Positions 1-64,000 of a stretch of 64,000 nucleotides of DNA are shown here, piece by piece. Under the pieces are notes generated by a model. That model had not been told where the DNA came from. It saw nothing but the letters and a program-made list of their open reading frames with translations, and ran no database searches. The stretch's first letter is position 1; each line of letters starts with the position of its first letter. The DNA comes from Bacteroidota bacterium (GTDB lineage: Bacteria; Bacteroidota; Ignavibacteria; Kapaibacteriales; DASPKH01). The position numbers and the translations under genes are program-made. The stretch lies in contig JAZKFS010000001.1 in assembly GCA_040386315.1 (NCBI GenBank), forward strand, positions 24,099 to 88,098, given 5' to 3'.

Positions 1-2
1 CA

Positions 3-1322
3 AGCATTACTGCTGCGAAGGAAGCCGGTGCGACACTTCTGATCACGGTTGACTGCGGCATTACGTCCGTAGATGCAGTTGCGCTTGCCAATTCAATGGG
101 CTTTGACTGCATTATCGTTGACCATCATAAACCCGGCGAGGCGCTCCCTGACGCGCTTGCAATCCTTGACCCGATCAAACCCGGCTGTAATTATCCTTTT
201 AAATTCCTCGCAGCGTGCGGCGTTGTTTTTAAACTTTGCCAGGCGCTTGCCATTTCACGCGGTGAACCCGAACGCGCCTTCCTCTACCTCGACTTTGTTG
301 CAATCGCTTCCGCCGCCGATATCGTTCCAATTCTCGACGAAAACCGCATTTTAATGCACTTTGGGCTGGAGCTTTTAAATACTTTTCCGCGCCCGGGTTT
401 TAAAGGTTTGTTTGAATGCGCGGGAATTGAGATCGGTACGGTAAATACAGCAAGTATCGTCTATGGTTTAGCTCCGCGTATCAATGCTGCCGGACGTGTT
501 GGCAGTGCGCGCCGTGCTGTGGAAATGATGATCCAGAGCGATGAATTAGCCGCTTTCAGAATTGCACAGGAATTAGAACAGGAAAACCGCCGCCGCCGTG
601 CTTTTGACGAAGTTGCTTTCGACGATGCTTCACGCCGCGCCGATGAGTTTTTAAAAGATAGCGCCAAACGCTCGCTTGTACTGTATTCTGAGGACTGGCA
701 TGCTGGCGTCATCGGCATTGTGGCATCGCGTCTTGTAGAGCGCTTTAATATGCCGTCGGTGATGCTTACCAAATTTGACGATTACGCAAAAGGTTCAGCT
801 CGCAGCGTTCGCAGTTTTGATATTTTTTCGGCTTTAAAAAACTGTGAATCGCATTTGCAGGAATTCGGCGGACATAAGCACGCAGCCGGCGTTTCGCTTA
901 AAATCGACAATATTGACGCTTTCCGAGAAGCGTTTGATGAGCAGGCGCGCGGCGGAATTTCACAGGAAATGCTCCTGCCGGAAATAGTTATTGACACAGA
1001 ACTCCGCCTGAATGAGCTTTCTCCGGACTTTTTCCAGGTAATAAAAAAATTCGCTCCGTTCGGTCAACAAAATTTTAAACCTGTCTTCCATGCGAAAAAT
1101 GTGACCTCCGCAAACGGCGTTCGCATCGTGGGGAATAATCATTTAAAATTCCGCGCGCTCCAGTCAAACTTTGCTATTGATGCCATTGGCTTTAATCTGG
1201 GCGATAAGATTGAACATTGCACCGATGGAAAAATGTTCTCGCTCGCCTTCACGCTTGAAGAAAATACGTTCAACGGGCAGACTGCTCCACAATTACGGCT
1301 GAGGGATGTTCGTCCTGAGTGA
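3..1322 (+). CDS. recJ: Single-stranded-DNA-specific exonuclease RecJ (C-terminal part; the gene starts upstream of the window)
   Basis: The frame is open from base 3 and reads SITAAKEAGATLLITVDCGITSVDAVALANSMGFDCIIVDHHKPGE. This contains the DHH-family phosphoesterase motif (IIVDHH). It is followed by a DHHA1-like region, and the overall similarity to RecJ is clear. Confidence 0.9.
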   Translation, partial: SITAAKEAGATLLITVDCGITSVDAVALANSMGFDCIIVDHHKPGEALPDALAILDPIKPGCNYPFKFLAACGVVFKLCQALAISRGEPERAFLYLDFVAIASAADIVPILDENRILMHFGLELLNTFPRPGFKGLFECAGIEIGTVNTASIVYGLAPRINAAGRVGSARRAVEMMIQSDELAAFRIAQELEQENRRRRAFDEVAFDDASRRADEFLKDSAKRSLVLYSEDWHAGVIGIVASRLVERFNMPSVMLTKFDDYAKGSARSVRSFDIFSALKNCESHLQEFGGHKHAAGVSLKIDNIDAFREAFDEQARGGISQEMLLPEIVIDTELRLNELSPDFFQVIKKFAPFGQQNFKPVFHAKNVTSANGVRIVGNNHLKFRALQSNFAIDAIGFNLGDKIEHCTDGKMFSLAFTLEENTFNGQTAPQLRLRDVRPE

Positions 1323-1395
1323 CATTTTTAAAAGCTTTTAAAAAAATCTAACTCTTTTAAAAGCATAAAATAAGCACCACTCACTCCTGAAAAAT

Positions 1396-4300
1396 ATGCT
1401 CTCAACCGAAACGGCATCCGGCTACTACGAAGAACTCTCCGATATTATGACATCGGACGACGTGCCCGCGCGCGAAAAAATTCTCCGTTTTAAAAGCGTT
1501 CTGGGCGAACTCTATTCAGAGGTTCTTTCGGAGGAATTCCAGTTCTTCTCCAGCGTGTATGCGCAGTCGGTGTATATTTTTGATAAATTTGCTGTTCCGG
1601 AATCGCTCGTTCAGCAACTCCATGCGCTTCGCATTTATTCCAACAAGATCTACCACAGCACCTCGGTTTTCCCAACGGAAGATGACGTTTGTGCCGCATT
1701 ACAGGCGCTTTGCCTTGCAATCTCTCACTTCTCCGGGCTTGATATTCCTGCCTCGCTTTTAAAACATTACGCCGGGCGTGCGCTTTTAAAACACACGGCA
1801 TTTCGCAAAAGCGCCGAAAAGGAAACTGTCGGCTTTCTTGAAAGCGTCGTTTTAAAAGTTGGAAAGCTCGATGAAACGACCGCTATTCCCCGCTGCCCTG
1901 TGCGGCTGATGACGGAAGAATTCGGGCCGATCACTCTTGTTTTAAAAGATAAGCTCGCAGCTCTCGGACGCGCTTTATGGAAAGGCGCAGCGGTGAATTT
2001 ATTTGATATTGAGGCAATTCCGGACCGCGAGAATATTTTTGCAACGAACTCCTCCACGCTTGTCGTCATTGAGCCGGACGTGCTGATTGACGTAACGGAA
2101 ATAGCAGAATGTTTCCAGGGGAACGGCTCAAATCCTAAGCTCTACTTTTTAAAAAAGTTTTTTCCTGCCGAGCCAAGCGAAAGTATGGTGGTGGGAAATC
2201 TCGTGAACGCCTACTTTGACGCGCTTTTAAAAGACCCTGACGCCGATTTTGATTCCATTTTTGAGGAAGCTATACGCTATAAGCCGCTCTCTGCGCTTTT
2301 TCTTATGTACAAAGAGCCAGGCTGCATTGAGAAGATCAAGCAAGAGGTGCTTAAACATTTTTTTGCTTTAAAAGAAATCCTGCCGCAATTCCACTATGAT
2401 TCCATTAATGTCGAGCCGTCGTTCATTTCAGCGAAATATGGCTTACAAGGGCGCCTGGATGCGATGTTTGAATATAGCGATGATGAATTTCGTAAAACGA
2501 TTATAGAATTAAAATCCGGCAAGCCGCCCGCCTTGGATTATAATATTCAACCTGTTTCAGGTGGTACGTCAGCGCGGGGACTGTGGGTGAATCATTACGC
2601 GCAGACAACGTGCTATAACCTGCTTTTAGATTCGACGTTTGAACATCGCACGGGAAGTAGCCAGATTTTGTACTCGCAGGCACACCAGCACCCGGTTCGC
2701 AACGCTCCGAATATAGCTCAGCACAAGCAGGAAGTAATGATCTTGCGGAACTGGATCGTTGCTATTGAGCGCACGATTATGAATAATTACTGTGCGATTT
2801 TGGAATCATTTACTATTCCACGATTTGGCCTGGCGCCGTCATTCACACAGGAAAAGATCCATATTTTTGCCACCGTTTACGAAAATCTGAGTGAGCTGGA
2901 GCGCGAGTATTTCCATGCATTCCTGTCCTTCATCATACGTGAGCAAAATTCTTCGCGCATCGGCTCAGGCAGAAATAACGGTTTTTCCTCGCTCTGGAAG
3001 AATTCTCTGGAAGATAAACTTGCGCAAATGAGCATTCTGGCGCATCTGGAATTAGATATAGAGCAGTCTGACTTTGCCAACCTGCACCTCTGTTTTAAAA
3101 GAACGGAAGTTTCATCGCCTGTTTCGACAATTCGAAAAGGCGATATTGCCATTTTATATCCACTGTCCGATGACGGCGCGGCGCGGCCTCTGTCACATCA
3201 GATCATCAAGTGTTCCGTAAAAGACATCACGCCGTCGCATATTAGCGTCAGCCTGCGCAATAAACAAATTGATGAAGAATACTTTTTAAAAAGCGCGAGC
3301 TGGATTATCGAACCCGATGTAATGGAAAGCGGTTACGGCAGCATTATCCAATCGCTTTTTGCATTTCTGCGAACTGACACCCGGAAAAAAGAAATCATTT
3401 TAGGACTGCGCGAACCCCAATTTGGCGAGCAGCCAAACATCTCGGAAGAAGCTTTAAGTGGAGAACAAAACATTCTTTTAAATCAGGCACTTAGCACAAA
3501 CGACTATTTTTTACTTCAGGGGCCTCCGGGAACAGGAAAAACATCAGTGATGATGAAATCTATTGTTGAGTATTTGTATTTCAATACCGATGAAAACATC
3601 CTGCTCCTTGCCTTTACAAATCGCGCTGTAGATGAGATTTGCACTGCTGTTTCAAAGATTTCCGAAGATATTGAGTTTATCAGGATCGGCGGGAAAGATT
3701 CAACTTCTTTTAAAAATAAAACACTTAACGAGATTTCCAATCAATTTACTTTAAATGAGTTAAATCAAAATTTAAAGTCAAAACGTATTTTTATCGGGAC
3801 CGTTTCTTCGCTTCATTCCCATTCCGAGCTTTTAAAACTAAAAGATTTTCATACGACGATAGTTGACGAGGCATCGCAGCTTTTAGAACCGCATTTATTA
3901 TCAATTCTGGCAGCTTCCGGCAGATTTATTCTTATTGGTGATGAAAAGCAGCTGCCTGCAGTTGTTACTCAAAGGGAATTCACACAGGTGCATGACTCGC
4001 CTCTGCTTCAGTCAATAGGTCTGGAGCGCCTCAGCACTTCGCTTTTCGAGCGTCTCCTCCGCTGCTGTGCTGCGAACGGCTGGCATAATGCGTATGGAAT
4101 GCTTTCGCGTCAGGGCAGGATGCACCGCGATATTCAGTCATTTGTCAATACATTTTTCTACGATGGAAAACTTGAGACGATCAGCGACTGGCAGGAAGAT
4201 CCGGCGCAAAAATTCAGCGCTGATTCCGACAGTTCGATGGAGCGAACTATGTCCCAGTCGCGGCTTATTTTCATGCCCTCGCAGGCGGAAAAGCTTTTAA

Positions 4301-4740
4301 AAATAAATCATAGTGAAGCGGCTCAGGTAGCTGAACTCGTGCAATGTATCTATGATGTATACGGCGATCATTTTACAGAAAAGACCATTGGTATCATTAC
4401 ACCGTTCCGAAGCCAGAGCGCCGAGATATACCGCGCGCTTGATGAAAATATACGGAACAGTATCAGTATTGACACGGTAGAACGCTTTCAGGGCAGCGAG
4501 CGGGATATTATTATTCTCTCCTACGCTGTCAATAAAAAATCTCATCTGGCAATGGTAGAATCGCCTGTTATTATCAATGAAAAAGTAATTGACAGGAAAT
4601 TAAACGTAGCATTGACGCGGGCTAAACATCATTTAATTATTATTGGCGTTCCGGGAGTTTTTAAAGAATCAGAGACTTTCAGCAATCTTTTAAAGTATTG
4701 CTTTATACCCGAAGATTTAACTTTAACTGATTTAAAGTAG
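1396..4740 (+). CDS. Dna2/NAM7-like nuclease-helicase: N-terminal PD-(D/E)xK (RecB/Cas4-like) nuclease plus C-terminal SF1 helicase (AAA_11/AAA_12)
   Basis: Nuclease motifs are present: D...IIELK (ExK) and QTTCY (QxxxY) near aa 355-400. The helicase part has Walker A LLQGPPGTGKT, Walker B IVDEASQLLE, and C-terminal helicase motifs (VERFQGSERDIIILS, ALTRAKHHLIIIG). Confidence 0.75.
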   Translation: MLSTETASGYYEELSDIMTSDDVPAREKILRFKSVLGELYSEVLSEEFQFFSSVYAQSVYIFDKFAVPESLVQQLHALRIYSNKIYHSTSVFPTEDDVCAALQALCLAISHFSGLDIPASLLKHYAGRALLKHTAFRKSAEKETVGFLESVVLKVGKLDETTAIPRCPVRLMTEEFGPITLVLKDKLAALGRALWKGAAVNLFDIEAIPDRENIFATNSSTLVVIEPDVLIDVTEIAECFQGNGSNPKLYFLKKFFPAEPSESMVVGNLVNAYFDALLKDPDADFDSIFEEAIRYKPLSALFLMYKEPGCIEKIKQEVLKHFFALKEILPQFHYDSINVEPSFISAKYGLQGRLDAMFEYSDDEFRKTIIELKSGKPPALDYNIQPVSGGTSARGLWVNHYAQTTCYNLLLDSTFEHRTGSSQILYSQAHQHPVRNAPNIAQHKQEVMILRNWIVAIERTIMNNYCAILESFTIPRFGLAPSFTQEKIHIFATVYENLSELEREYFHAFLSFIIREQNSSRIGSGRNNGFSSLWKNSLEDKLAQMSILAHLELDIEQSDFANLHLCFKRTEVSSPVSTIRKGDIAILYPLSDDGAARPLSHQIIKCSVKDITPSHISVSLRNKQIDEEYFLKSASWIIEPDVMESGYGSIIQSLFAFLRTDTRKKEIILGLREPQFGEQPNISEEALSGEQNILLNQALSTNDYFLLQGPPGTGKTSVMMKSIVEYLYFNTDENILLLAFTNRAVDEICTAVSKISEDIEFIRIGGKDSTSFKNKTLNEISNQFTLNELNQNLKSKRIFIGTVSSLHSHSELLKLKDFHTTIVDEASQLLEPHLLSILAASGRFILIGDEKQLPAVVTQREFTQVHDSPLLQSIGLERLSTSLFERLLRCCAANGWHNAYGMLSRQGRMHRDIQSFVNTFFYDGKLETISDWQEDPAQKFSADSDSSMERTMSQSRLIFMPSQAEKLLKINHSEAAQVAELVQCIYDVYGDHFTEKTIGIITPFRSQSAEIYRALDENIRNSISIDTVERFQGSERDIIILSYAVNKKSHLAMVESPVIINEKVIDRKLNVALTRAKHHLIIIGVPGVFKESETFSNLLKYCFIPEDLTLTDLK

Positions 4741-4749
4741 CATATTTAT

Positions 4750-5502
4750 ATGGCCGGACATAGTAAATGGGCGAATATTAAGCACAAAAAAGCTGTAACG
4801 GATTTCCGTCGGGGCAAGATATTCACGCGCCTTGTAAAAGAGATCATCGTAGCTGCGCGGGAAGGTGGCGGCAATCCTGATAGTAATTCCCGCCTTCGTC
4901 TTGCAATCCAGAATGCACGCTCACAAAATGTACCATCGGAGAACATCAAACGCGGCATACAGCGCGGCACCGGCGAGATCGAAGGCCTGACGTATGAAGA
5001 GAACGTGTATGAAGGATTCGGGCCATCAGGAGTTTCTGTCCTCGTGCAGACGCTTACTGACAATCGCAACCGCACGGTAGCTGAGTTGCGTGCGCTTTTT
5101 AATAAACATGGCGGTACACTTGGCGAGGCCGGCTCTGTTGCATGGAATTTTCATCGTAAAGGGATTGTGCAAATTGACAGTAACGGCAGCACAGATGATG
5201 ATATCCTTATGCATGTTTTGGAATGTGGAGCAGATGACGCGGAATTTACTGATGAAAAGACTGCGCGTATTATATGCCCGCCCGAGCAATTAGCACAATG
5301 CCACAGGTATTTTGAAGATCAGAAATTTACCGTTTCAGAAGTAAAATTCGAATATCTGCCGAATACTTTTGTAAAGATTTTCACTCCCAATGATGCGCAG
5401 GTTTTCATGAAATTTCTCGATGCAGTTGAAGATTATGACGATACACAGGATGTTTTCACCAACGTTATTATTGACGATACAGCGATCAGCGACACCGAAT
5501 AA
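4750..5502 (+). CDS. yebC: YebC/PmpR family DNA-binding transcriptional regulator
   Basis: The N-terminus MAGHSKWANIKHKKAVTDFRRGKIFTRLVKEIIVAAREGGGNPDSNSRLRLAIQNA is diagnostic of the YebC (DUF28) family. The gene is adjacent to ruvC, as in many bacteria. Confidence 0.95.
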   Translation: MAGHSKWANIKHKKAVTDFRRGKIFTRLVKEIIVAAREGGGNPDSNSRLRLAIQNARSQNVPSENIKRGIQRGTGEIEGLTYEENVYEGFGPSGVSVLVQTLTDNRNRTVAELRALFNKHGGTLGEAGSVAWNFHRKGIVQIDSNGSTDDDILMHVLECGADDAEFTDEKTARIICPPEQLAQCHRYFEDQKFTVSEVKFEYLPNTFVKIFTPNDAQVFMKFLDAVEDYDDTQDVFTNVIIDDTAISDTE

Positions 5503-5609
5503 TTACCCTGTTTTTAAAATCTTTTGTAAATCTTTCCTTCTCATCGTATATTTAGCATAATTATCAGCAGCAGCATTGCCGGTAAAAGTTTTTAAAAGAG
5601 GAAATCATC

Positions 5610-6158
5610 ATGCGTGTATTGGGAATTGACCCCGGAAGCGTCGTCTGCGGCTACGGCGTCATAGAAAAAATCGGAGCAAAGATCACGCTCGTCGAGTACG
5701 GTGTGATCGAAGCAAAAAAAATACATCCTTCCCTGCAACTTCGCCTCGAAGCGATCTTCACGCGCCTGCAAAAAGTCGTTGAGCGTTCGCTGCCGGATGA
5801 GGCATCGCTGGAATCCCTTTTCTACGCAAAAAACCCGCAGTCGCTCATGAAACTCTCTCATGCGCGTGGCGTTGCAATGCTTGTGCCCACTCTAAAGCAA
5901 ATTCCCGTGACGGAATATTCCGCCCGCGAAGTAAAGCGCGCTGTGACAGGTAATGGAAATTCCAGTAAGGAACAAGTGCAGTTCATGGTGCGAACTCTGC
6001 TTAATATCGAGGAAACCCCGGAATTTTTCGACGCGACCGATGCGCTCGCTATTGCCATCTGTCACGCTTTTAAAGCAGCCAATCCTCAGTCCCGCGCCCG
6101 CTCGTGGAAGGATTTCATTGCGCAGAATCCGCAGCGTGTAGCGGCTGGTGCGAAGTAG
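5610..6158 (+). CDS. ruvC: Crossover junction endodeoxyribonuclease RuvC
   Basis: MRVLGIDPGSVVCGYGVIE with the catalytic Asp in LGIDPG, and a C-terminal ATDALAIAICHA motif. A Shine-Dalgarno-like AGAGGAAA precedes the ATG. Confidence 0.95.
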   Translation: MRVLGIDPGSVVCGYGVIEKIGAKITLVEYGVIEAKKIHPSLQLRLEAIFTRLQKVVERSLPDEASLESLFYAKNPQSLMKLSHARGVAMLVPTLKQIPVTEYSAREVKRAVTGNGNSSKEQVQFMVRTLLNIEETPEFFDATDALAIAICHAFKAANPQSRARSWKDFIAQNPQRVAAGAK

Positions 6159-6200
6159 TTTTTAAAAAGTATATTTCTCGACGTACTTTTTCTATTTATT

Positions 6201-6310
6201 ACCTTCCCAAAATCATTTTTTGCCTTCCCAAAATCATTTTTTGCCTTCCCAAAATCGTTTTTTGCCTTCCCAGAATCATTCCGGGACTTCCCAAAATCAT
6301 TCCGGGAAAG
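6201..6310. repeat. Five tandem copies of a 21-bp direct repeat (consensus CCTTCCCAAAATCATTTTTTG), the last two diverging to ...ATCATTCCGGGA
   Basis: Read directly from the sequence. The repeat lies just downstream of the ruvC stop and generates the spurious 76-aa ORF 6104..6334. Confidence 0.9.
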
Positions 6311-6430
6311 TCTTTTAAAAAGATCGGAGCATAAAAAAGGGTAGAATATTCCCGCCTTTTTAAAATCCTGCCCTTTCCGCCTGTGTAATGATAAATCTTT
6401 GGTTTTTAATGGAGTTTTTAAAAAATAGGA

Positions 6431-6519
6431 TTGTCATTCTGAGCATAGCGAAGAATCTAGGCCGGAATGGATAAACGCGAACTGCTGACGTAGATCCTTC
6501 GCTATGCTCAGGATGACAG
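6431..6519. repeat. Palindromic MITE-like element, copy 1 (TGTCATTCTGAGC...GCTCAGGATGACA hairpin family)
   Basis: A near-perfect inverted repeat: tgtcattctgagcatagcgaag...cttcgctatgctcaggatgaca. It has a conserved central core, AACGCGAACTGCTGACG. A partial copy (ccggacaagccggaatgacag) sits at 6556-6580. Confidence 0.85.
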
Positions 6520-6668
6520 ATATGGAATTTAATGCTTTGCCCTGTTTAAAAGAAAGATTCCGGACAAGCCGGAATGACAGAGTTTTGGAATGATTTTTAA
6601 AATCCCCCGCACTTTGGTAAATTGCCACCGCTACGACTTACACACCATACAAATAATTATAAAAGAAA

Positions 6669-9425: not shown

Positions 9426-9435
9426 TAATATTTAT

Positions 9436-9579
9436 TTGTCATTCCCCTGAAAAGGGGAATCAACGTTGGTTGGACGCGTCAGGATACAATTCTCGTTTTA
9501 AAAACAGCGCTTTTAAAATGTCATAACATCATTTTTCAACTTCTTCTGACGTTGATTCCCCTTTTCAGGGGAATGACAG
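9436..9579. repeat. Palindromic MITE-like element, copy 2 (longer variant; TGTCATTCCCCTGAAAAGGGGAATC...GATTCCCCTTTTCAGGGGAATGACA)
   Basis: It has the same terminal TGTCATTC / GAATGACA inverted repeats and the internal AACTTCTTCTGACG core as the other copies. Confidence 0.8.
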
Positions 9580-9600
9580 ATGTAAAAAACAACCACTACA

Positions 9601-9689
9601 TTGTCATTCTGAGCATCGCGAAGAATCCACGTTGGAATGACTGAACGCGAACTTTTGCCGTAGATTCTTCGCTCCGCTCAGAATGACAA
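9601..9689. repeat. Palindromic MITE-like element, copy 3
   Basis: ttgtcattctgagcatcgcgaagaatc...gattcttcgctccgctcagaatgacaa, with the central GAACGCGAACTTTTGCCG core. Confidence 0.85.
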
Positions 9690-9713
9690 TGCAGGTAAGA
9701 AAGAATTAATCGA

Positions 9714-9840
9714 AAAAATCCCCTCCTCGGAGGGGTGCCCATCGGGCGGGGTGGGTTCGCGTTGGATGGTCGCGCGATTGCTGACGATTGCTACTGTGAG
9801 CCCACCCCGGCCTGCGGCCACCCCTCCGGGGAGGGGATTT
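9714..9840. repeat. GC-rich long imperfect hairpin (aatcccctcctcggaggggtg ... cacccctccggggaggggatt)
   Basis: The terminal inverted repeats are about 20 bp. The composition is strikingly GC-rich relative to the flanks. The hairpin sits in the intergenic region between the MmeI-like gene and ispH. Confidence 0.7.
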
Positions 9841-9844
9841 TAAA

Positions 9845-9885
9845 AACAAAAAAGCAGTTCCCTTTTTTAAAAAGAAACTGCTTTT
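9845..9885. terminator. Bidirectional rho-independent terminator between the convergent MmeI-like gene and ispH
   Basis: aaaagcagttccc-ttttttaaaaa-gaaactgctttt forms a GC stem flanked by T/A runs on both strands. Confidence 0.6.
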
Positions 9886-9912
9886 AAAAACTTTTAAAAT
9901 ATTTTTAAAACC

Positions 9913-10818: not shown

Positions 10819-10864
10819 TGATTTTAAAAGTAGGTTTTAAAAAGAAGTTAGTTAAAGTAAATGT

Positions 10865-11560: not shown

Positions 11561-11578
11561 GAAATCTTTTTAAAAACC

Positions 11579-14862: not shown

Positions 14863-14913
14863 TCCTAAGTAAATGTCTCTCTCCCGGGAGATGTCCGAAG
14901 GACAGAGGGATTC

Positions 14914-43501: not shown

Positions 43502-43502
43502 A

Positions 43503-51773: not shown

Positions 51774-51806
51774 AGAGAACTCCTGGTTTTACAGGAGTTC
51801 TTTTCT
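51774..51806. terminator. Bidirectional terminator hairpin between the convergent BNR gene and pnkp
   Basis: aagagaactcctg-gttttac-caggagttctttt. Confidence 0.6.
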
Positions 51807-51815
51807 AATCTTCTG

Positions 51816-55765: not shown

Positions 55766-55809
55766 ATGTGATTCAGCTTTTAAAAAGCGTTTTTATGTTT
55801 TTAAAAAAT

Positions 55810-57186
<1,377 letters not shown>

Positions 57187-57198
57187 TTAAAAGTAATT

Positions 57199-58143
57199 TT
57201 ACAAATCCAGCACTTGAAATTCCGAAATCCTAAATTCCTTTCTTTTTACAAGTTTTGGTTCTTTTAAAAGAAATTCCGGCTTTTCCTTCGTGCTTTTAAA
57301 ACAAAACCTGCGCGGCAAATCTGTATAAATTGAGCGAGGCGGCTTTTTATAACTAATGTCTTTTAAACGATTCCCGCTTTCATATTCATGGTAAAAAATC
57401 CTGCGGATTCCCATTTCCTCGCGGATAAACCACAGCGCAGCGGCCAGCATCGCCTCATCCCAAATCTTCACATGCGGTTTTAAAACGTCTTCTACATACG
57501 TGTGCAGATTTCCCGAATTTACACGATTGCGATGTGTCAGCTGACGCACACGAACACGATTATCGTCGAGTGATTCCACCACTTCCACCGTTGTGCTTCT
57601 ACGCAGTGCCACACGAATCCAGTCATTTTGGATTTCCTCTATCAACGCCTCGCCCGTCGTCAGGTCGAGGTCAATCCGTGCCCACGCCATCGTGCGCCGT
57701 TCACCACCTGCAATCGGATGGCATGAATATTCAAACGGATGGTAATCTTTCGGCTTTATCATCGAAGTATAAGCGCGATTGTGTCCGGCATTGAAATTCA
57801 TTTGCAGAACGATATTCAATCCCGCGCGCGTTTTTTGAGCACCCCATTGTAAGCCGCGTCCCCATTGACCAACTGTCAACGTGTACGATTCAAAGCTCTC
57901 CGGCCACTTCATTTCAAAAAGCTCTGGATAAAGCATTCCGTCCGGTGCCAAAGCAATCAGCTCCCGAACGTCTTTCTTCTCCAGCAAACCTTTAAAAGGC
58001 GTGGCCTTAATATCGCGCACATGTTTGCGCTCTTTCGTCAGATATTGCAAAATCTGGCGCGCGTATTTATCCCGAAAATAATAGAATACCGTCCGCCCCG
58101 GCGTCAGGCACTCGATAATTTCCCTGTATTCTTTTTCTGTCAT
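57199..58143 (-). CDS. Hypothetical protein (314 aa) embedded in the RNA-repair cluster
   Basis: The ORF is uninterrupted and co-oriented with the cluster, 25 bp upstream of the rtcB-like gene. No motif was recognised. Confidence 0.4.
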   Translation of the reverse strand: MTEKEYREIIECLTPGRTVFYYFRDKYARQILQYLTKERKHVRDIKATPFKGLLEKKDVRELIALAPDGMLYPELFEMKWPESFESYTLTVGQWGRGLQWGAQKTRAGLNIVLQMNFNAGHNRAYTSMIKPKDYHPFEYSCHPIAGGERRTMAWARIDLDLTTGEALIEEIQNDWIRVALRRSTTVEVVESLDDNRVRVRQLTHRNRVNSGNLHTYVEDVLKPHVKIWDEAMLAAALWFIREEMGIRRIFYHEYESGNRLKDISYKKPPRSIYTDLPRRFCFKSTKEKPEFLLKEPKLVKRKEFRISEFQVLDL

Positions 58144-58542
58144 AAAAATAGATTATTCTGTCGTTTTTAAAAGTTATTTTTTTCACATTTCCGCAGCTAA
58201 TCCGCGGTTTTAAAAGTTTGTTTGTCCCGCTACCGGGCAGATAATTTTGTCTTAGAATTGTCATTGGATGTTTCCTCCGTTTTGGATTTTTAAAAGAAAA
58301 ACCCGCTCCTGCACGAAGCAAAAGCGGGTTTTAAAAGTTGAAAATTTTAAAAACACTACCTTCGCTTCAGACACAATACACCACGCCCATCCCGCTTTTG
58401 CAGCAGATTTATCGCGTGGCTATATTGTTCAATAAAGGAGCGCATTGTTTTTAAAAGTAATTGCTTATAAAAAAAGTAATAATTCATTGTACCTGCCGAA
58501 AACAGGTTTCCCGCAGGTACAATTTTTAAAAGCCTAGCGAAC

Positions 58543-59976
58543 TCAGTTTTTAAAAGAAACCGAGCTAATTTTCTCAATCATCGAAGCTTTATCTGTTTCC
58601 ATCAGCTTCATGATGTCGAAAATTTTATCTGAAAATCCGGCCGTGCAGAATACTTTGTTTTGAGGCAATTGCAGTGTTCCATAGCCTTGCAGATCAAATG
58701 AATAGACAAACGGGTCAGCGCCAGTACGGCGTTTGTACGCTGTGAATTCGTTTGCCGGAGTGTCATTGCCAATCCAGCCCTGCATGTCTGACAAGATGAT
58801 GATGCGGTCGTATTTTCTTTTCGCCTTTTGAAAGATCGCGTGGAAGTTTGTACCTCCCATCGCAAATTTTATCGAACGCGCAATCGTTATTGTGCTGTCG
58901 CCAATATTCACGTTTTTGTAGGCCGCATCATCGGAAAATGTCATAAAATCAGCATTGTTGGATTTCACCAGGATTGCCGAAAACAGCGAACCGATTTCAG
59001 CCGGTTTTCCCGCCATCGAACCCGAAACATCCAGTACAACAAGCGTTTCGCCATCGAACTTCGGAACGTTATTCAGTGAAATGTCAACCGCCGTATTCAG
59101 CGCTTGCAGCACCTCGCGAACAACTTTCCCGCTGTCCATTTTTAAAACTTCCTCGTACGCCGTTGTAAAGCGGAACGGCAGAACAAGTGATTTTTTAATC
59201 AGGCGCTCGTTCGTCAGCATTTCCAGAGCTTCGCCGATGACGTCAGGTGCCTGCGTAATGATATTGCGCAAGTTTCGCAAAAGTGCAAAGTAGCCGATTT
59301 TTCGCGAGCGAATCAGCTCCGTCCACGCTTCGTTTTTAAAAACGGCTTTTTGCTCGTCGTTTTCAGCTGTTTGTCCGGTTTTTGTCAGCGCGGATTCCCA
59401 TGTACCTGTTGAGCGAAGTTCATCTTTAATCAATGCCGAAATTGCTTCAGCATTTTTCTCAACCGGCACCGGGTGAACCAGATTCACAACATCTACAAGT
59501 TTAAAATCTTTAGATGCCGCACGGTATTTACCCAGCTGGTAGCTATCGAAACGTTCGAATGCTTTTGCAAAACCTTTTTTCATTGAGTTCGGCACTTTAC
59601 CGTTCGTCGCTGTGTGGTATGCCAGGATTTCCATCATGTCATCCGGACGGAATACAACCGCGCTGTAAAAATCCTTCGCCCACACCTGTCCGCCGATGTG
59701 CTTTGCCAGCTCTGAAGCGACCACATGCGAAATCGTACGCATACCAAATTCCGTTCGCGCAAAAATGGCTGCCTTCGCGACGAACTCCTTGTCGCAGAGT
59801 GCGATGAGATTTTTCAATCGCTCTAAGCCGTCATGCTGGCTTCTGTAAAACTGGTCTTTCACGAACGACGTGACCAGCATCGAAACCAGTTCGAGTTCAG
59901 GCGACTGCTTGTACGCATCACCGCCCGCGAAGTTTTTGACTTTTGCCAAAGCTGTTGAAAAATTAAATCGTGCCAT
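58543..59976 (-). CDS. rsr: Ro60-related protein Rsr (TROVE domain + C-terminal vWA domain)
   Basis: It has a TROVE-like N-terminal region and a C-terminal vWA domain with the MIDAS motif LVVLDVSGSM. It sits immediately downstream of the tRNA-like ncRNA array. Two terminator hairpins follow the gene (58488-58525, 58290-58330). Confidence 0.65.
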   Translation of the reverse strand: MARFNFSTALAKVKNFAGGDAYKQSPELELVSMLVTSFVKDQFYRSQHDGLERLKNLIALCDKEFVAKAAIFARTEFGMRTISHVVASELAKHIGGQVWAKDFYSAVVFRPDDMMEILAYHTATNGKVPNSMKKGFAKAFERFDSYQLGKYRAASKDFKLVDVVNLVHPVPVEKNAEAISALIKDELRSTGTWESALTKTGQTAENDEQKAVFKNEAWTELIRSRKIGYFALLRNLRNIITQAPDVIGEALEMLTNERLIKKSLVLPFRFTTAYEEVLKMDSGKVVREVLQALNTAVDISLNNVPKFDGETLVVLDVSGSMAGKPAEIGSLFSAILVKSNNADFMTFSDDAAYKNVNIGDSTITIARSIKFAMGGTNFHAIFQKAKRKYDRIIILSDMQGWIGNDTPANEFTAYKRRTGADPFVYSFDLQGYGTLQLPQNKVFCTAGFSDKIFDIMKLMETDKASMIEKISSVSFKN

Positions 59977-60037
59977 TATGCACCTCCTCTAAAAAATATG
60001 GAAACATGGCTTTTTAAAAAGCCGGGGAATCAAAAAA

Positions 60038-60112
60038 ACGGCAGAGAAAACTGCGGGAGTTCTACTGGGCGATTTAGCAAATCGAAGTAACTCAAAGCCG
60101 CATCACTACTGC
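60038..60112 (-). ncRNA. Y-RNA-like repeat unit A (short form, lacks a tRNA-like module)
   Basis: It shares the unit ends (GGCAGAGAAAA ... CACTACTGC) and the internal CGAAGTAACTC motif with units C-F. Confidence 0.35.
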
Positions 60113-60138
60113 TTTTAAAAAGACAATTTTAAAAATAA

Positions 60139-60222
60139 GAGGCAGAGAAAATTCGCGTGGAATTTAGGGCGAATTAAAAGTTCGCTGCTTTAAAGCGATG
60201 TATTCCGCGTGTCGCTACTGCC
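60139..60222 (-). ncRNA. Y-RNA-like repeat unit B (short form)
   Basis: It has the same terminal motifs (GAGGCAGAGAAA ... CGCTACTGCC) with complementary ends. Confidence 0.35.
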
Positions 60223-60235
60223 TTTTTAAAATAAA

Positions 60236-60362
60236 TGACGGAGAAAATGGGGTAAGGCTGTGCTTTACCAATTTAGCTACCAACGGAGTTTTAAAACCCC
60301 GATGGACTGGACTCGAACCAGCAATGACTTACGTCGAAGTAACTCACCTTTCACTACCGTCA
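60236..60362 (-). ncRNA. Y-RNA-like (YrlA-type, tRNA-mimic) unit C
   Basis: The minus strand reads GACGGTAG..GAGTTACTTCG..CTGGTTCGAGTCCAG-TCCATCGG..CCGTTGG-TA-GCTAAATTGGTAAAGC..CTCCGTCA. That is T-arm, then 3' acceptor strand, then a short linker, then 5' acceptor strand plus D-arm. The acceptor strands are complementary (6/7), and the unit ends pair (GACGG/CCGTC). Confidence 0.45.
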
Positions 60363-60392
60363 AACTTTTAAAAATGAAAGAACAAAAAATAA

Positions 60393-60532
60393 AGAGGCAG
60401 AGAAAGTTTATGTAGGACTTTTTCGTTGCTCTACCAACTGAGCTATATTCAGAATTTTAAAATCTGAACAGCCGGACTCGAACCGGCGACCCACGGCACC
60501 CTAAGCGAAGTAACCCACATATCGCTACTGCC
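60393..60532 (-). ncRNA. Y-RNA-like (tRNA-mimic) unit D
   Basis: The T-arm is GCCGGTTCGAGTCCGGC. The 3' acceptor strand TGTTCAG pairs with the downstream CTGAATA, which is followed by TA-GCTCAGTTGGTAGAGC (D-arm). Confidence 0.45.
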
Positions 60533-60547
60533 TTTAAAAAAACAAAA

Positions 60548-60692
60548 TGACGGAGAAAATCTGAGTGAGTAAGCTGCTCTACCAACTGAGCTACATCCCC
60601 ATTTTTAAAAACTTAAATCAGAGGAGATGGCGGGACTCGAACCCGCGACAGGCCGCGTGATAAGCGAAGTAACCCACTCGTCGCTACCGTCA
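60548..60692 (-). ncRNA. Y-RNA-like (tRNA-mimic) unit E
   Basis: The T-arm is GCGGGTTCGAGTCCCGC. The 3' acceptor strand CATCTCC pairs (with one G.U) with the downstream GGGGATG, which is followed by TA-GCTCAGTTGGTAGAGC. The unit ends are TGACGG/CCGTCA. Confidence 0.45.
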
Positions 60693-60703
60693 AAAAAATA
60701 CGT

Positions 60704-60833
60704 GATGGAGAAAGTTTACAGGAGTTGTTAGGCGAAACGCTCTAACCTTTGAGCTATATTCCGTTAGCTGGAACAGCCGGACTTGAACCGGCAACGTTTT
60801 CGTACGAAGTAACTCGCCGTATCACTACCATCA
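60704..60833 (-). ncRNA. Y-RNA-like (tRNA-mimic) unit F
   Basis: The T-arm is GCCGGTTCAAGTCCGGC. The 3' acceptor strand TGTTCC pairs with GGAATA, which is followed by TA-GCTCAAAGGTTAGAGC. The unit ends are GTGATGG/CCATCAC. Confidence 0.45.
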
Positions 60834-61252
60834 CATTTTCCAAAGAACATTTTTAAAAGCAAAAAACCCACCTTCGCGAATCTTGCAAAGGTGGGTTTTC
60901 AAAAAGATGAAACCGCTCTATATGTATTGCTACACTACCTCTGCTTTAGACAAAACCCTTCCTGACTGCCAAGCATATGCTTGCGGTCTATCACGGGATT
61001 ATATGTTGCTAAAGTGAGGCGCATTGTTTTTAAAAGTAATTATCGTCGTGTTTGTAAAATTGAGTTGCAAACCTACAAAGGTTTTTTACAAAGTCAAATT
61101 AATTTTTTGTCATAATGCAAATAATTATAAGACTTCACATCGGTAAGTTTTACATTGTGATGCTAAAGAAGTATTTAAATTTGATATTTCTCTGGTCTAA
61201 TACAGGTCTACTGGTTCAAGAAATCCCTTAAATTTACCAGATTTCACCACAT

Positions 61253-61303
61253 ACCTTACTCCTACGAATCAGAAGGTTGTAAGTTCGAACTCGCCGGGTG
61301 CAC
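61253..61303 (+). mobile_element. Second direct repeat of the tRNA-Arg 3' half (att core with a 1-nt deletion) with upstream arm-type repeats
   Basis: ctacgaatcagaaggttgtaagttcgaa-ctcgccgggtgcac. It has the same 10-nt upstream context (taccttactc) as the 48.2-kb copy. TGGTCTAAT / AGGTCTACT repeats lie at 61190-61215. A terminator hairpin follows. Confidence 0.7.
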
Positions 61304-62094: not shown

Positions 62095-62808
62095 TTAAAA
62101 ATTCATCGGAACATCAATCACCAAAACTTCAGAATCTTTTAAAAACTTCATTTCAACATTTTTAAAATCCTCAATTCCAATCGCGTCACGTTCTTTTAAA
62201 ACATTTTCGTCAATTTCCGCTTCACCTTTTAAAAGAAAAATAAACGCGCCATTTCCTTCCTTTTTAAAAGAATATTCCGCCGTTTTTCCTTCATCAAAAT
62301 TCCCCATCGAAAACCACGTATCCTGGTTTATCCAAACTGCATCGCTCTCTTTTTGGGGCGAAACAACCGTTTTAAAACTATTTTTAAAACCATCTTTTTC
62401 AAAGCTTTTCTGCTCGTAGCGCGGCTGAATATCCTTTTCTTTCGGGTAAATCCAGATTTGCAGAAAATGCACTTCCTCTTCAGGCGAATAATTATATTCC
62501 GAATGCGTGATACCGCTTCCAGCTGACATGATCTGCACATCGCCCGTTTTAATTTCCTTCGCCACTCCGGTTGAATCCTTGTGCGCCAGCGTTCCTTTAA
62601 GCGGAATGGAAACAATTTCCATATTCTCGTGCGGATGCGCGCCAAAACCCTTTCCCGGTGCAACAATATCGTCATTCAGCACGCGCATCAGGCCAAAATT
62701 CATCCTGTTCCTATCCTGATAACCCGCAAAGCTAAACGTGTGGCGCGATTTCAGCCAGCCGTGATCTGCATTTCCCCGTGATTCACTTGTAAAAATTGTC
62801 GTTTTCAT
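62095..62808 (-). CDS. Pirin-family (bicupin) protein
   Basis: GFGAHPHENMEIVSIPLKG and SAGSGITHSEYN match the pirin HPHxG and cupin His motifs. Confidence 0.85.
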   Translation of the reverse strand: MKTTIFTSESRGNADHGWLKSRHTFSFAGYQDRNRMNFGLMRVLNDDIVAPGKGFGAHPHENMEIVSIPLKGTLAHKDSTGVAKEIKTGDVQIMSAGSGITHSEYNYSPEEEVHFLQIWIYPKEKDIQPRYEQKSFEKDGFKNSFKTVVSPQKESDAVWINQDTWFSMGNFDEGKTAEYSFKKEGNGAFIFLLKGEAEIDENVLKERDAIGIEDFKNVEMKFLKDSEVLVIDVPMNF

Positions 62809-62907
62809 TTCAAACCTTTTTTTAAAGAATAATTTTTTGCCCCTCGAATGTATTGAGAGCTTATACAGACATTAACGATTAAAAATAAAGTTGCGTGTTT
62901 AAACACA

Positions 62908-64000
62908 CTAATTCTCATTCAGAAAGTATGTCTGCATAATTCCTTTGCCCTTAATGTCAATTGGCTCTCTTTTTTCAAAAGAAAAATTACCATTTAACCT
63001 TTTAAAAACTTCTTCGCTTACATGAATTCTGTCAGTTTCACCGGTGGCTTCCATGCGGGCGGCTGTATTGACAGTATCGCCCCACAGGTCGTACGCATAT
63101 TTTTTCATGCCGATCACGCCGCCGATCGCTTCGCCGCAATGCAGGCCGATCCGAACCCGGATTTCGCCAATCGTCGTCATCCAGGTTCGGTCGCCTTCAA
63201 TCTCCTTGGGAATTTTGACCACAAGGTTTTTTAAAACTTTTAAAAGCTCGACAGCTGTTCGTGCTGCTTTTTGCACATGCTGTTCGTCATATTCAGGAAT
63301 TCCGGATGCCGCCATATACGCATCGCCTATTGTCTTGATCTTTTCAAGGCCAAATTTGTCAATAACGCTGTCACAGGCATCGAAAATCGAATTTAAAAGA
63401 TAGAGCAGCTGACGGGAAGAAACGATAGCCGATAAGTGGGTAAAATTAACAATATCGAGGAAAAGCACGCTGATATCAGGATAATAATCCGCAAGCGGAG
63501 ACTCACCGTCACGAAGCCGGTCAACAACCGAACTTGGAAAAATATTATTTAAAATCGTGTATGTGGCTTTCTGCTCGCGCCGCTCTATTTCACGCTCTTT
63601 TTCAATTTCAGCAAATTTCTTTTGAGCTTCAAGATCAGCCATTTTCTTGGCAACTTCCTCACTGAAGACTTCCTTTTCAAGCTCATGAAATTTCGTAAAA
63701 TACTCCGCATAGCTCTGCCAGTCTTCAATTTCTTTATACAATTGTGCAAGCGATTCATACAATTTCACTTTAATATCTCGCTCACCTGTTTCCTCGTTTA
63801 AACCAAGCGCCCTCTTTAAAAAGTCAGTGGCTTTTAAAACATCATACTCTGCAAAATTTTTGTTGCCATAGAGCATGCCGATGTTTTGCAACGCCTGCAT
63901 TACGCCATTTTTATCACCAATTTTTTCCTTTATTTCCAGCGATCTTTTAAAGCACTGAAGCGCTTTTAAAAAGTCCCCCATTTCGACATAGATCGGGCCA
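62908..64000 (-). CDS. TPR-repeat class III adenylate/guanylate cyclase (N-terminus beyond the window end)
   Basis: The catalytic domain has ILFLDIVNFTHLS, KTIGDAYMAASGIP and GLHCGEAIGGVIG. The N-terminal part present in the window is TPR-like. The ORF is open to position 64000. Confidence 0.8.
   Translation of the reverse strand, partial: GPIYVEMGDFLKALQCFKRSLEIKEKIGDKNGVMQALQNIGMLYGNKNFAEYDVLKATDFLKRALGLNEETGERDIKVKLYESLAQLYKEIEDWQSYAEYFTKFHELEKEVFSEEVAKKMADLEAQKKFAEIEKEREIERREQKATYTILNNIFPSSVVDRLRDGESPLADYYPDISVLFLDIVNFTHLSAIVSSRQLLYLLNSIFDACDSVIDKFGLEKIKTIGDAYMAASGIPEYDEQHVQKAARTAVELLKVLKNLVVKIPKEIEGDRTWMTTIGEIRVRIGLHCGEAIGGVIGMKKYAYDLWGDTVNTAARMEATGETDRIHVSEEVFKRLNGNFSFEKREPIDIKGKGIMQTYFLNEN

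Follow-up and report, generated by a model that had tools for sequence, protein, structure and literature searches.

A saturating A/T-only palindrome in one shallow Kapabacteria clade, best read as a HIP1-type element with a new sequence in a new phylum

Why should a bacterial chromosome carry one short palindrome about once every 230 bases, inside genes as well as between them? The question is raised by the DNA analysed here (the window, a stretch of 64 kb), in which the octamer TTTTAAAA, its own reverse complement, was counted 177 times, compared with 10.0 ± 3.1 (maximum 21) in dinucleotide-preserving shuffles. In the native DNA its density was ~4.3/kb (4.2–4.4/kb), an observed/expected ratio (O/E) of ~130 by base composition, and it was hyper-abundant in both compartments, at 9.3/kb in non-coding and 2.8/kb in coding DNA, with genes holding 100 of the 171 sites (58%) outside the pfa block. 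An earlier, sequence-only reading had reported extreme over-representation, put at tens of times the expectation, and about 17 copies in the first 5 kb; the enrichment stood, its size proved to be more than 100 times the base-composition expectation, and 16 copies were counted in that interval.

Specificity and phylogenetic range of TTTTAAAA

The enrichment is highly specific for the exact word. The same-composition control palindrome AAAATTTT was not enriched in the window (10 copies), host DNA contained 158 TTTTAAAA versus 7 AAAATTTT, T8/A8 runs were not enriched in host DNA, and against the 158 perfect sites the one-off words numbered only 28 at position 1 and 30 at position 8. Outside the 8 bp the information dropped sharply, beyond which Y (at −1) and R (at +1) are each preferred in 73% of sites, a soft extension to YTTTTAAAAR. 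This is the actual flank bias; the claim that the word often occurs as CTTTTAAAAG was overstated (19 of 177). TTTTAAAA does not belong to a longer palindrome, and its flanks are unrelated, with a flank complementarity of 23–31%, the chance level, and a 16-bp palindrome at only 2 of 339 sites.

The hyper-abundance is confined to one shallow, roughly genus-level clade of Kapabacteria (Bacteroidota/FCB group), and not to the window, so that the refuting condition of a window-only enrichment set in the earlier reading did not apply. A sister species carried 162 copies across 38.5 kb, a stretch that takes in suf, sod and polysaccharide genes not represented in the window; densities of 2.2–4.3/kb were reached in two more relatives, and four independent assemblies of the lineage were motif-rich, including the sister, L002, L084 and the flank of L208. 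The remaining 78 Kapabacteria/Ignavibacteria loci, in which IspH was at most 74% identical, had 0–3 copies each, and GC-matched outgroups yielded one copy in 282 kb (O/E 0.16), with TTTAAA avoided as well (O/E 0.34); the host itself is Kapabacteria-like by its IspH, MgtE and T9SS proteins. The genome-wide process suspected earlier is thus supported as a lineage-wide, DNA-level one, 'genome-wide' being an extrapolation from a lineage sample of ~140 kb. The word provides a strong binning signal for metagenomes of the group. Several contigs of the motif-rich lineage carry unlikely deposited names (Patescibacteria, Hyphomicrobiales, Chloroflexota).

Codon pairs, orthologous sites and imported islands

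Within genes TTTTAAAA encoded Leu-Lys or Phe-Lys, in agreement with the earlier reading, and never occupied its TAA frame: coding sites fell into frame 1 (66) and frame 2 (38), while frame 0 was empty because the TAA stop in the word rules it out. TTA-AAA made up 78 of 110 Leu-Lys pairs (71%; 15 expected; 7% in relatives) and TTT-AAA 59 of 63 Phe-Lys pairs (94%; 31 expected; 10% in relatives), and near-cognate synonymous pairs were strongly depleted (TTT-AAG and TTC-AAA, each 2 versus 13 expected). This log-odds shift of ~3–5 in codon-pair choice is well above typical codon-usage selection. Protein composition was shifted too, the dipeptide O/E being 1.54–1.93 for LK (0.84–1.06 in outgroups) and 1.56–1.90 for FK (0.60–0.64 in outgroups), with both dipeptides 1.5–3 times commoner than in relatives. 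The force acts on DNA, overriding codon and amino-acid preference.

Compared with the sister species, positions were shared beyond background, 16 of 29 coding sites (55%) being found at the same position versus 13% for control 8-mers in the same frame and 22% for AT-rich ones, which may reflect parallel gain rather than retention. Gene-wise densities were correlated between the two species (rho 0.64, p = 0.01), and a weak trend to lower density in conserved proteins (rho −0.3 to −0.4) was not significant.

The pfa islands behave differently from their flanks, with 0.29/kb inside the island of the window and 0.8/kb inside that of the sister versus 4.3–4.8/kb outside (island O/E 3 in the window and, as an estimate, ~10 in the sister). 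In the window the word is scarce there though the block is AT-richer (GC 0.38 versus 0.45), and the block has no TTA-AAA or TTT-AAA codon-pair preference. It had been flagged as foreign from about 5 copies between 25.4 and 45.2 kb; 6 were counted, and its foreign origin was independently supported by its start at a tRNA-Arg, at which synteny with the sister breaks, the 43-nt repeats at 48211 and 61262, the lower GC, and the sister's island, which is likewise motif-poor and adjoins an integrase. The closest named relatives of PfaD are in Bacteroidia. Foreign DNA that is motif-poor but partly enriched fits accumulation after acquisition, as for uptake sequences (PMC2817400), and TTTTAAAA can serve as an internal residence-time marker for imported DNA, delimiting the pfa islands in two genomes. 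The features of the window are collected in Table 1.

Table 1. Features of the 64-kb window and their TTTTAAAA content
Feature	Coordinates	Strand	Remarks
Native chromosome segment, TTTTAAAA-saturated	1..24384	.	106 sites, 4.35/kb, O/E ~129; synteny with sister species
MmeI-family DNA methyltransferase	6669-9425		Sole DNA methyltransferase in the window
Intergenic cluster, four sites	9865..9910	.	10-17 bp apart, downstream of ispH; first site is a hairpin loop (9850-9885)
Intergenic cluster, four sites	14654..14710	.	Three at 13-bp spacing (14654/14667/14680); fourth is a hairpin loop
Hairpin, 14-bp stem	14691-14722		TTTTAAAA in loop
Motif-dense example gene, ferredoxin reductase-like	21611..22333	-	8 sites, 11/kb; sister ortholog 8.4/kb
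tRNA-Arg(ACG)	24310..24384	+	Left edge of motif-poor pfa block; sister synteny stops here
pfa (PUFA synthase) block and PPTase gene	24385..45200	.	GC 0.38; 6 sites, 0.29/kb, O/E 3
Segment right of pfa block	45201-48253		8 sites
Direct repeat, tRNA-Arg 3' half, 43 nt	48211..48253	+	att-like remnant
Inter-repeat block: BNR protein, Pnkp/Hen1, RtcB, Ro60, Y-RNA-like array	48254..61303	.	40 sites, 3.1/kb
Second direct repeat, tRNA-Arg 3' half	61262..61303	+	att-like remnant, one deletion
Right-hand motif-rich segment	61304..64000	.	17 sites, 6.3/kb

The block at 48.3–61.3 kb is island-like in its setting between tRNA-derived repeats yet motif-rich. The intermediate density ascribed to the BNR region applies to the BNR gene itself (0.64/kb) and not to its block, which, being motif-rich, would be an old resident or an import from a motif-rich relative.

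Candidate forces behind the hyper-abundance

What acts in this lineage, and in this lineage only, is a strong, ongoing, sequence-specific force on double-stranded DNA. It fills nearly every tolerant position, i.e. the intergenic spacers and the Leu-Lys and Phe-Lys codon pairs, it keeps or recreates sites at orthologous positions, and on imported islands it has so far had little effect. Our best reading is a HIP1-type element, new in both sequence and phylum, for which we infer the mechanism as follows. We tentatively class TTTTAAAA with HIP1 and the uptake sequences as a highly iterated palindrome, which would spread via a dimeric reader linked to methylation, uptake or recombination. The 8-bp palindrome suggests a dimeric DNA-binding protein that was acquired or retargeted by the lineage, with an orphan adenine methyltransferase, a protein of the DNA uptake and recombination machinery, or both, as the likeliest candidates. 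Site-bearing DNA would be favoured in natural transformation, homologous recombination or repair, as has recently been reported of methylated HIP1, and the word could spread through molecular drive or weak selection to saturation, becoming a self-DNA tag.

More specifically, it is possible, though we hold it with reserve, that an uncultured, non-cyanobacterial lineage has a self-DNA system not described before, with TTTTAAAA as its recognition tag, serving as a recently acquired signal for methylation-dependent uptake/recombination or for repair/strand discrimination. Since the relatives avoid the word and the imported islands lack it, TTTTAAAA looks like a new AT-only counterpart of HIP1. No candidate reader (methyltransferase, competence gene or other) was identified in the ~140 kb read. 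The MmeI-family enzyme of the window is unlikely to be the cause, because it is missing from the sister's syntenic site and because the MmeI family recognises asymmetric sites. To our knowledge, natural competence is undocumented for this lineage. Counting against the favoured reading, the near-total saturation of the permissive codon pairs goes beyond what has been described for uptake sequences, and uptake sequences are not known to be palindromic.

The spacing of the sites bears on a role in chromosome structure. Measured at short range, in contiguous stretches of 24 kb and 38 kb at the longest, the counts per 2 kb were even (variance/mean 0.47 in the sister and 0.93 in the left part of the window), each orthologous spacer retained at least one site in both species (12 of 12) although positions turn over, and spacings of 9–17 bp between neighbouring sites were in excess, all of which would suit the binding site of an abundant nucleoid-associated or chromosome-organising protein, with selection holding the density high and even for compaction or domains. 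Such a protein would read the T-tract/A-tract junction, with its flexible TpA step and narrow minor grooves on either side, and the ~40-fold enrichment of the 7-mers TTTAAAA and TTTTAAA and the soft fall-off outside the core would point to a structural element and not to a base-rich code; a role in chromosome structure was argued for HIP1 by Xu et al. (PMC5861425). Below 1 kb, however, the sites were clumped and not regular (variance/mean 1.4–1.8), proteins of this sort are usually conserved across wide clades, so that, with the nearest relatives avoiding the word, a global architectural protein would have to have changed very recently, and selection alone hardly fixes thousands of individually weak sites. 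We regard the binding site as an unlikely explanation, and reading of the tract junction as equally unlikely.

The depletion of near-cognate synonymous pairs would fit a repair-linked site, at which a lineage-specific methyltransferase and a nicking or mismatch endonuclease would use the word to discriminate strands or to bias repair, in a MutH/Dam-like or Vsr-like manner, the sites being either selected for dense coverage or made by repair biased to the cognate word. Palindromy and the 8-bp length suit recognition of the restriction-modification type, the sharp gain in one shallow lineage suits horizontal acquisition of an enzyme, and a role in methyl-directed repair was proposed for HIP1 by Elhai (PMC4390886). 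On the other hand, an enzyme pair of this kind was not seen in the ~140 kb examined, the one-off 8-mers were mildly enriched rather than depleted (O/E 3–17 at the outer positions), and Vsr-type repair needs 5mC deamination and so is inapplicable to an A/T-only word. Both the repair signal and either route to its density appear doubtful to us.

Crowding of the sites within 10–20 nt of start and stop codons counts against the favoured reading as well and could instead indicate a role in gene expression, with UUUUAAAA in transcripts or TTTTAAAA in DNA acting as an AU-rich leader, a TAAAA-type ribosome-loading element, a backup TAA stop or a terminator T-tract, and the genic copies as by-products. 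A site lay ≤10 nt upstream of the start in 28% of genes and ≤10 nt after the stop in 35%, 7 stop codons lay inside a site, non-coding DNA is the denser compartment, a few sites form hairpin loops or tails, and a palindrome is present in the mRNA whichever strand codes. But the genic majority of sites, overriding codon and amino-acid choice, is not explained by a boundary signal, frame 1 gives a U_UUA_AAA slippery heptamer that is presumably harmful, palindromy is purposeless for an RNA signal, and the word is avoided in relatives that share the expression machinery. Terminator-like sites were also at chance (29 versus 27 in shuffles). A threefold tandem reported at 14652–14692 was recovered as the 13-bp-spaced triple, and the loop position claimed for the word in several terminators was confirmed for only two clear hairpins within the first 20 kb. 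Gene expression is a poor candidate for the main force.

A neutral by-product of mutation or composition (context-dependent mutation bias, polymerase slippage, codon usage) or an assembly artefact is most improbable and already largely refuted, for although the host shows a mild excess of AAAATTTT and A/T runs (O/E ~5) and TTA, AAA and TTT are common codons in the genome, the enrichment recurs in six separate assemblies from five data sets with the extreme specificity described above, codon-pair use is far above the product of codon frequencies, conservation is four times that of control 8-mers, coding DNA does not tolerate slippage indels, and resident AT-rich islands are still motif-poor.

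Comparison with known iterated words

Like REP/MITE repeats, TTTTAAAA has many dispersed copies, some in hairpin loops, but those elements are 20–300 nt long, intergenic and spread by transposition, whereas only 8 bp recur here and most copies outside the pfa block lie in-frame in genes; a REP/MITE origin was rejected on this mostly genic placement, the chance-level flank complementarity and the two extended palindromes. Chi, KOPS, matS, NBS and SBS are also over-represented short words, more so in core than in foreign DNA, and are read by DNA-processing proteins. Chi and KOPS are asymmetric, strand-skewed, G-rich and 10–100 times rarer, and a Chi-like hotspot was rejected since the palindrome carries no orientation and no orientation skew; matS, NBS and SBS, though palindromic, are present in only tens of copies per genome; none of the five reshapes codon-pair or dipeptide usage, unlike TTTTAAAA.

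Uptake sequences come closer. USS (Pasteurellaceae) and DUS (Neisseriaceae) are likewise lineage-specific short words, present in hundreds to thousands of copies, that raise the encoded peptides, are frame-biased and are missing from recent imports; they serve as a self-DNA tag, the role proposed for TTTTAAAA. They roughly double the frequency of the encoded peptides, accumulate in imports later and tend to be sparser in the most conserved proteins, and with 1,471 and 1,892 copies per genome (PMC2817400) they are exceeded by the 4.2–4.4/kb of TTTTAAAA, as the sequence-only reading had held. USS and DUS are, however, non-palindromic words of 9–12 nt at ~1/kb or less and often form inverted terminator pairs, whereas terminator-like sites of the 8-bp palindrome are at chance; both natural competence and a cognate receptor for uptake have been demonstrated for them. 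No competence genes were seen in the loci read of the TTTTAAAA-rich lineage (~140 kb).

The nearest counterpart is HIP1 (Highly Iterated Palindrome 1) of cyanobacteria, along with its HIP variants, a 30-year puzzle in cyanobacterial genomics, in which a near phylum-wide spread hampers comparative inference. TTTTAAAA is a second, independent case, with another word in another phylum, denser and with visible codon-pair and dipeptide distortion, and because it was gained within a shallow clade while the nearest relatives avoid the same word, its cause is directly testable by comparative genomics. If the self-DNA-system reading is true, highly iterated palindromes would be a general, repeatedly evolved feature and not a cyanobacterial curiosity, and the clean presence/absence contrast would let comparative genomics find the responsible gene(s). 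HIP1 is a palindromic octamer at 0.3–2.7/kb (O/E 55–228), tied to methyltransferases (PMC4390886), and is conserved between related genomes beyond codon conservation and control octamers (PMC5861425); a periodic distribution at kilobase scale (10–90 kb) also counts among the marks of the HIP1 type. Its function was long obscure, and it is now linked to methylation-dependent transformation (bioRxiv 10.1101/2024.09.10.611283, 10.64898/2026.06.24.733823), which it boosts when methylated (bioRxiv 10.1101/2024.09.10.611283). Both words are hyper-abundant to a similar order, in coding and non-coding DNA, with a soft palindromic extension of one base per side, are conserved above controls and are lacking in some related lineages. 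Unlike HIP1 (GCGATCGC), TTTTAAAA differs at every position, is A/T only and has no GATC or CGATCG core, so that the HIP1 methyltransferases DmtA and DmtC cannot read it. HIP1 extends over most of the cyanobacterial phylum, whereas TTTTAAAA marks a shallow clade of Kapabacteria amid relatives that avoid it, and there, with one reading frame barred by its TAA stop, it is denser than any quoted HIP1 value.

Abundance, form and coding context of the octamer

The palindromic octamer TTTTAAAA occurred 177 times in the 64-kb window, compared with 10.0 ± 3.1 copies (maximum 21) in 100 dinucleotide-preserving shuffles, and was the top-ranking 8-mer, with the next-ranked ones all overlapping it; the control palindrome of the same composition, AAAATTTT, had 10 copies, and T8/A8 were without enrichment. 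Its spread along the window was very uneven (table), and as the pfa block, which holds the PUFA synthase genes and a PPTase, is AT-richer, more copies would be expected there by chance, not fewer. About half of the TTAA tetramers in native DNA lay inside TTTTAAAA. Perfect copies numbered 158, one-off copies 28 at position 1 and 30 at position 8, and positions 2 and 7 very rarely deviated; in essence the octamer is the whole motif, with a soft flank preference for Y at −1 (73%) and R at +1 (73%). Complementarity of the flanks was at chance level (23–31%), and a model in which TTTTAAAA sits at the centre of a more extended palindrome or hairpin was therefore rejected. The sequence-only reading had described the word as often taking the form CTTTTAAAAG and as lying in terminator loops. 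The form is present, but in only 19 of the 177 copies; two clear loop hairpins were found in the first 20 kb, but terminator-like sites did not exceed shuffle expectation, and termination was rejected as a general explanation.

Coordinates and octamer content of the features discussed (window positions unless a contig is named; O/E from base composition)
Feature	Position	Strand	Copies	Per kb	GC	O/E	Remarks
Left segment	1–24384		106	4.35	0.448	129	
MmeI-family (type IIL) restriction-modification gene	6669–9425						between ruvC and ispH
GC-rich inverted-repeat hairpins	9430–9840						after MmeI-family gene, before ispH
tRNA-Arg(ACG)	24310–24384						pfa block starts directly after; last native site at 24297
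pfa block	24385–45200		6	0.29	0.379	3	
Segment	45201–48253		8	2.62	0.392	37	
Direct repeats of tRNA-Arg 3′ 43 nt	48211–48253; 61262–61303						24 kb and 37 kb downstream
Segment	48254–61303		40	3.07	0.443	84	
RNA-repair block, Pnkp	51816–54368						
RNA-repair block, Hen1	54368–55765						
RNA-repair block, RtcB	55810–57174						
YrlA-like (Y RNA-like, RF02553) tandem array	60232–60831	−					at least 4 units, period about 150–165 nt
Right segment	61304–64000		17	6.30	0.403	102	
Sister-sample pfa island (PfaD 85%)	L208 5800–21617						other locus, beside tyrosine integrase (6616–7467) and TPR-LuxR regulator

Below 1 kb the sites were clumped (variance/mean 1.4–1.8), with an excess of mostly intergenic 9–17-bp neighbour spacings, and at 2 kb they were even, with variance/mean of 0.47 in the sister (a related species, JGI 3300043546, contig Ga0485821_000017) and 0.93 in the left part of the window. 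Outside the pfa block, site density was 9.3/kb in non-coding versus 2.8/kb in coding DNA. Sites crowded at gene borders, lying ≤10 nt upstream of the start in 18 of 65 genes and within 10 nt after the stop in 23 of 65, with seven stop codons inside a site.

Among the 104 ORF sites of the whole window, 66 lay in frame 1 (xTT TTA AAA), 38 in frame 2 (xxT TTT AAA A) and none in frame 0, where TAA would arise. In native genes, 78 of 110 Leu-Lys pairs were written TTA-AAA, compared with 15 expected from codon frequencies, and in 63 of these 78 an NTT codon preceded, completing the octamer; Phe-Lys was TTT-AAA in 59 of 63 cases (31 expected), and the near-cognate pairs TTT-AAG and TTC-AAA were depleted (2 each versus ~13 expected). 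This codon-pair bias was absent from the pfa genes. In long ORFs of matched-GC relatives, TTA-AAA made up 7% of Leu-Lys and TTT-AAA 10% of Phe-Lys versus 37% expected, the latter indicating that the relatives avoid TTTAAA. The implied log-odds shift in codon-pair use, about 3–5, would be well above ordinary codon-usage selection. The encoded proteins were changed as well: O/E of Leu-Lys was 1.54 in the window and 1.93 in the sister versus 1.06 and 0.84 in outgroups (motif-poor Kapabacteria/Ignavibacteria loci), and that of Phe-Lys 1.56 and 1.90 versus 0.60 and 0.64, while KL and KF, with the residues in reverse order, were unchanged. The force is thus exerted at the DNA level and overrides coding preferences. 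Each of the 66 frame-1 sites (e.g. at 1488, 1757 and 11866) also fits the slippery-heptamer pattern X_XXY_YYZ perfectly, as U_UUA_AAA, and gives TAA immediately in the −1 frame; judged from the heptamer itself, the motif may carry a translational-fidelity cost that is curtailed by this immediate termination.

Lineages carrying the octamer and turnover of its sites

The host is Kapabacteria-like, encoding a T9SS-sorted protein and having its best IspH and MgtE matches in Candidatus Kapaibacterium/Kapabacteria MAGs. Counting TTTTAAAA in 80 IspH loci, one genome per species, yielded a single rich locus, L002 (IspH 92% identical, 2.2/kb), while the other 78 (IspH ≤74%, GC 0.31–0.61) had 0–3 copies in up to 21 kb. 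In 18 pooled outgroup loci of GC 0.42–0.50 (282 kb), one copy was found versus 6.4 expected (O/E 0.16), a roughly 1,000-fold per-kb contrast with the window, and O/E was 0.34 for TTTAAA and 0.43 for TTAA; CTTAAG was avoided as well in outgroup loci L003–L081 (O/E 0.29). Such avoidance, together with the low TTT-AAA use of the relatives, indicates that an ancestral avoidance of the word is reversed in the rich clade. High densities were also determined in the relative L084 (GCA_020063865, IspH 93%; 4.3/kb), in the sister (IspH 92%, MgtE 87%; 162 copies in 38,480 contiguous bases, 4.2/kb, O/E 130–150) and in the native flank (1–5.8 kb) of L208, a second contig of the sister's sample (Ga0485821_000060; 4.8/kb). 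The sister stretch was joined from two overlapping fetches and includes suf, sod, rpsT and polysaccharide genes absent from the window; contiguous sampling beyond the window rests on it, look-ups with window-end proteins having given only 2–5 kb Logan contigs. Thus, as the sequence-only reading had supposed, the enrichment is not confined to the window. In a collection of 5.8 billion proteins, lineages of intermediate identity were absent, with IspH stepping from 93% and 92% to 74% and MgtE from 100% and 87% to 70%. The enrichment is a trait of a shallow, roughly genus-level clade.

IMG/VR viral contigs with three TTTTAAAA separated by gaps of up to 20 nt were, among the matches listed, almost all AT-rich (GC 0.17–0.33) with chance-like O/E, along with a few short stretches of GC 0.37–0.40 and O/E 17–26. 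GC-flanked TTTTAAAA patterns from the window and sister were rare among true positives and frequent by chance, and so of no use as a metagenome probe. Several contigs that are clearly Kapabacteria-like by IspH and gene neighbourhood (L002, L007, L022, L027, L032, L044, L047, L048 and L071) carry unrelated names in their records (Patescibacteria, Chloroflexota, Hyphomicrobiales, Bradyrhizobiaceae, Chitinophaga pinensis, Didemnitutus), probably because the MAGs were mislabelled or mis-binned.

When nine orthologous genes of the window and the sister were aligned by codon, codon identity among identical residues was about 0.55, showing that synonymous sites are near saturation. In these alignments, 16 of the 29 window and 27 sister sites were at the same position (55%), compared with 13% for other same-frame 8-mers and 22% for AT-rich 8-mers, and amino-acid replacements accompanied some lineage-specific sites. 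Gene-wise site densities of the two species were correlated (Spearman 0.64, p = 0.01), and density showed only a weak, non-significant negative trend with protein conservation (−0.3 to −0.4). None of the 12 orthologous intergenic spacers lacked a site in either species (totals 30 versus 28), and only ~7 of these sites align, indicating that site number is maintained while position turns over.

Islands and insertions

About 30 further upstream bases are common to the tRNA-derived repeats at 48211 and 61262, a layout that suggests tandem island accretion at the tRNA gene, with two putative integrative islands; neither showed an evident integrase ORF of 120 aa or more. Gene order is shared with the sister from RecJ through rpsT and tRNA-Arg, and the synteny ends exactly at the tRNA, which in the sister is followed by unrelated sod/suf genes. 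The nearest named relatives of PfaD are Bacteroidia (Adhaeribacter 75%, Mucilaginibacter 62%). Over a few hundred bases at the edge of the L208 island, TTTTAAAA declines from 4.8/kb to 0.8/kb, with GC going from ~0.45 to 0.38, and a third PfaD contig (90% identical) had no copies in 5.1 kb. The tRNA start and repeats, the synteny break, the Bacteroidia-type PfaD and the motif-poor island of the sister's sample thus bear out the earlier proposal that scarcity of the octamer marks the pfa DNA as foreign, and the island seems mobile within the clade. Relative to what their own base composition predicts, the pfa islands still had a 3- to 10-fold excess, in keeping with a slow accumulation after arrival. 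The block at 48.3–61.3 kb lies between tRNA-derived repeats yet has 3.1/kb, so is either old or from a motif-rich relative. Positions 45480–45510 (− strand), on the distal border of the pfa genes, read TGGTGGGATTAGAGGGACATCTCGAACC, resembling on the opposite strand a tRNA 3′ end (T-arm plus CCACCA); ARAGORN called no tRNA there, and the stretch may be left over from the attachment site that the island originally used.

Since ruvC and ispH are adjacent in the sister, the MmeI-family gene and the hairpins that follow represent inserted DNA in comparison with that species; the segment at 6160–9900 is motif-rich (4.3/kb) though an insertion. The MmeI-family enzyme was rejected as the cause, since the sister, which is just as motif-rich, lacks it at the syntenic position. 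The YrlA-like array lies directly beside a Ro60/TROVE gene (58543–59976), its units having E-values of 9e-9 to 2e-3 and all scoring below the Rfam gathering score (best 46 versus 69 bits); TTTTAAAA occurs in three of the units, flanked in at least one by a short inverted repeat.

The force on the octamer and comparison with known palindromes

A strong, specific and continuing directional force acts in one lineage on an 8-bp, double-strand-symmetric word; its effects extend to spacers and the retention of sites as well as to codon pairs and dipeptides, and it lags in imported DNA. Because the signatures match those of uptake sequences and HIP1, the cyanobacterial highly iterated palindrome, we tentatively favour a self-DNA tag of that kind, whose spread would be due to weak selection or to bias in uptake, recombination or repair. 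Its palindromy would imply that the reader binds DNA as a dimer, and its sudden appearance in the phylogeny would point to a gene that the clade gained or retargeted. A binding site of a nucleoid or architectural protein, with which the even 2-kb density and the conserved presence per orthologous spacer agree, is unlikely given the very recent onset. Similarly doubtful is a site for methyl-directed repair or strand discrimination; a Vsr-like signature, with one-off variants depleted, was not seen. That the word is a gene-expression signal would suit the crowding at gene borders but is improbable in view of its palindromy and its saturation of coding sequence. That the enrichment is neutral and compositional in origin, or artefactual, is very improbable considering the specificity (158 copies versus 7 of AAAATTTT), the occurrence in six independent assemblies, the codon-pair excess beyond codon frequencies and the persistence of AT-rich islands as motif-poor.

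For uptake sequences, encoded peptides are roughly doubled, newly acquired genes lack them and they accumulate after transfer (PMC2817400). HIP1, a palindromic octamer of 0.3–2.7/kb and O/E 55–228, is tied to methyltransferases (PMC4390886), is conserved beyond codon conservation (PMC5861425), and according to recent reports gives a methylation-dependent rise in natural transformation (bioRxiv 10.1101/2024.09.10.611283) and co-varies with DNA-transfer genes (bioRxiv 10.64898/2026.06.24.733823). Neither over-representation of TTTTAAAA in any bacterium nor iterated palindromes in Kapabacteria or Bacteroidetes were found reported in the full-text literature, whose coverage leaves out most subscription journals. 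Descriptively, TTTTAAAA belongs with the highly iterated palindromes, as a hyper-abundant, conserved palindromic octamer, but differs from HIP1 in sequence and taxon; with uptake sequences it shares the evolutionary signatures, though it lacks the asymmetry, and its density exceeds every value given for HIP1 or uptake sequences in these papers. It is an independent case, in which presence and absence contrast cleanly, for the long-standing question of what highly iterated palindromes are for.
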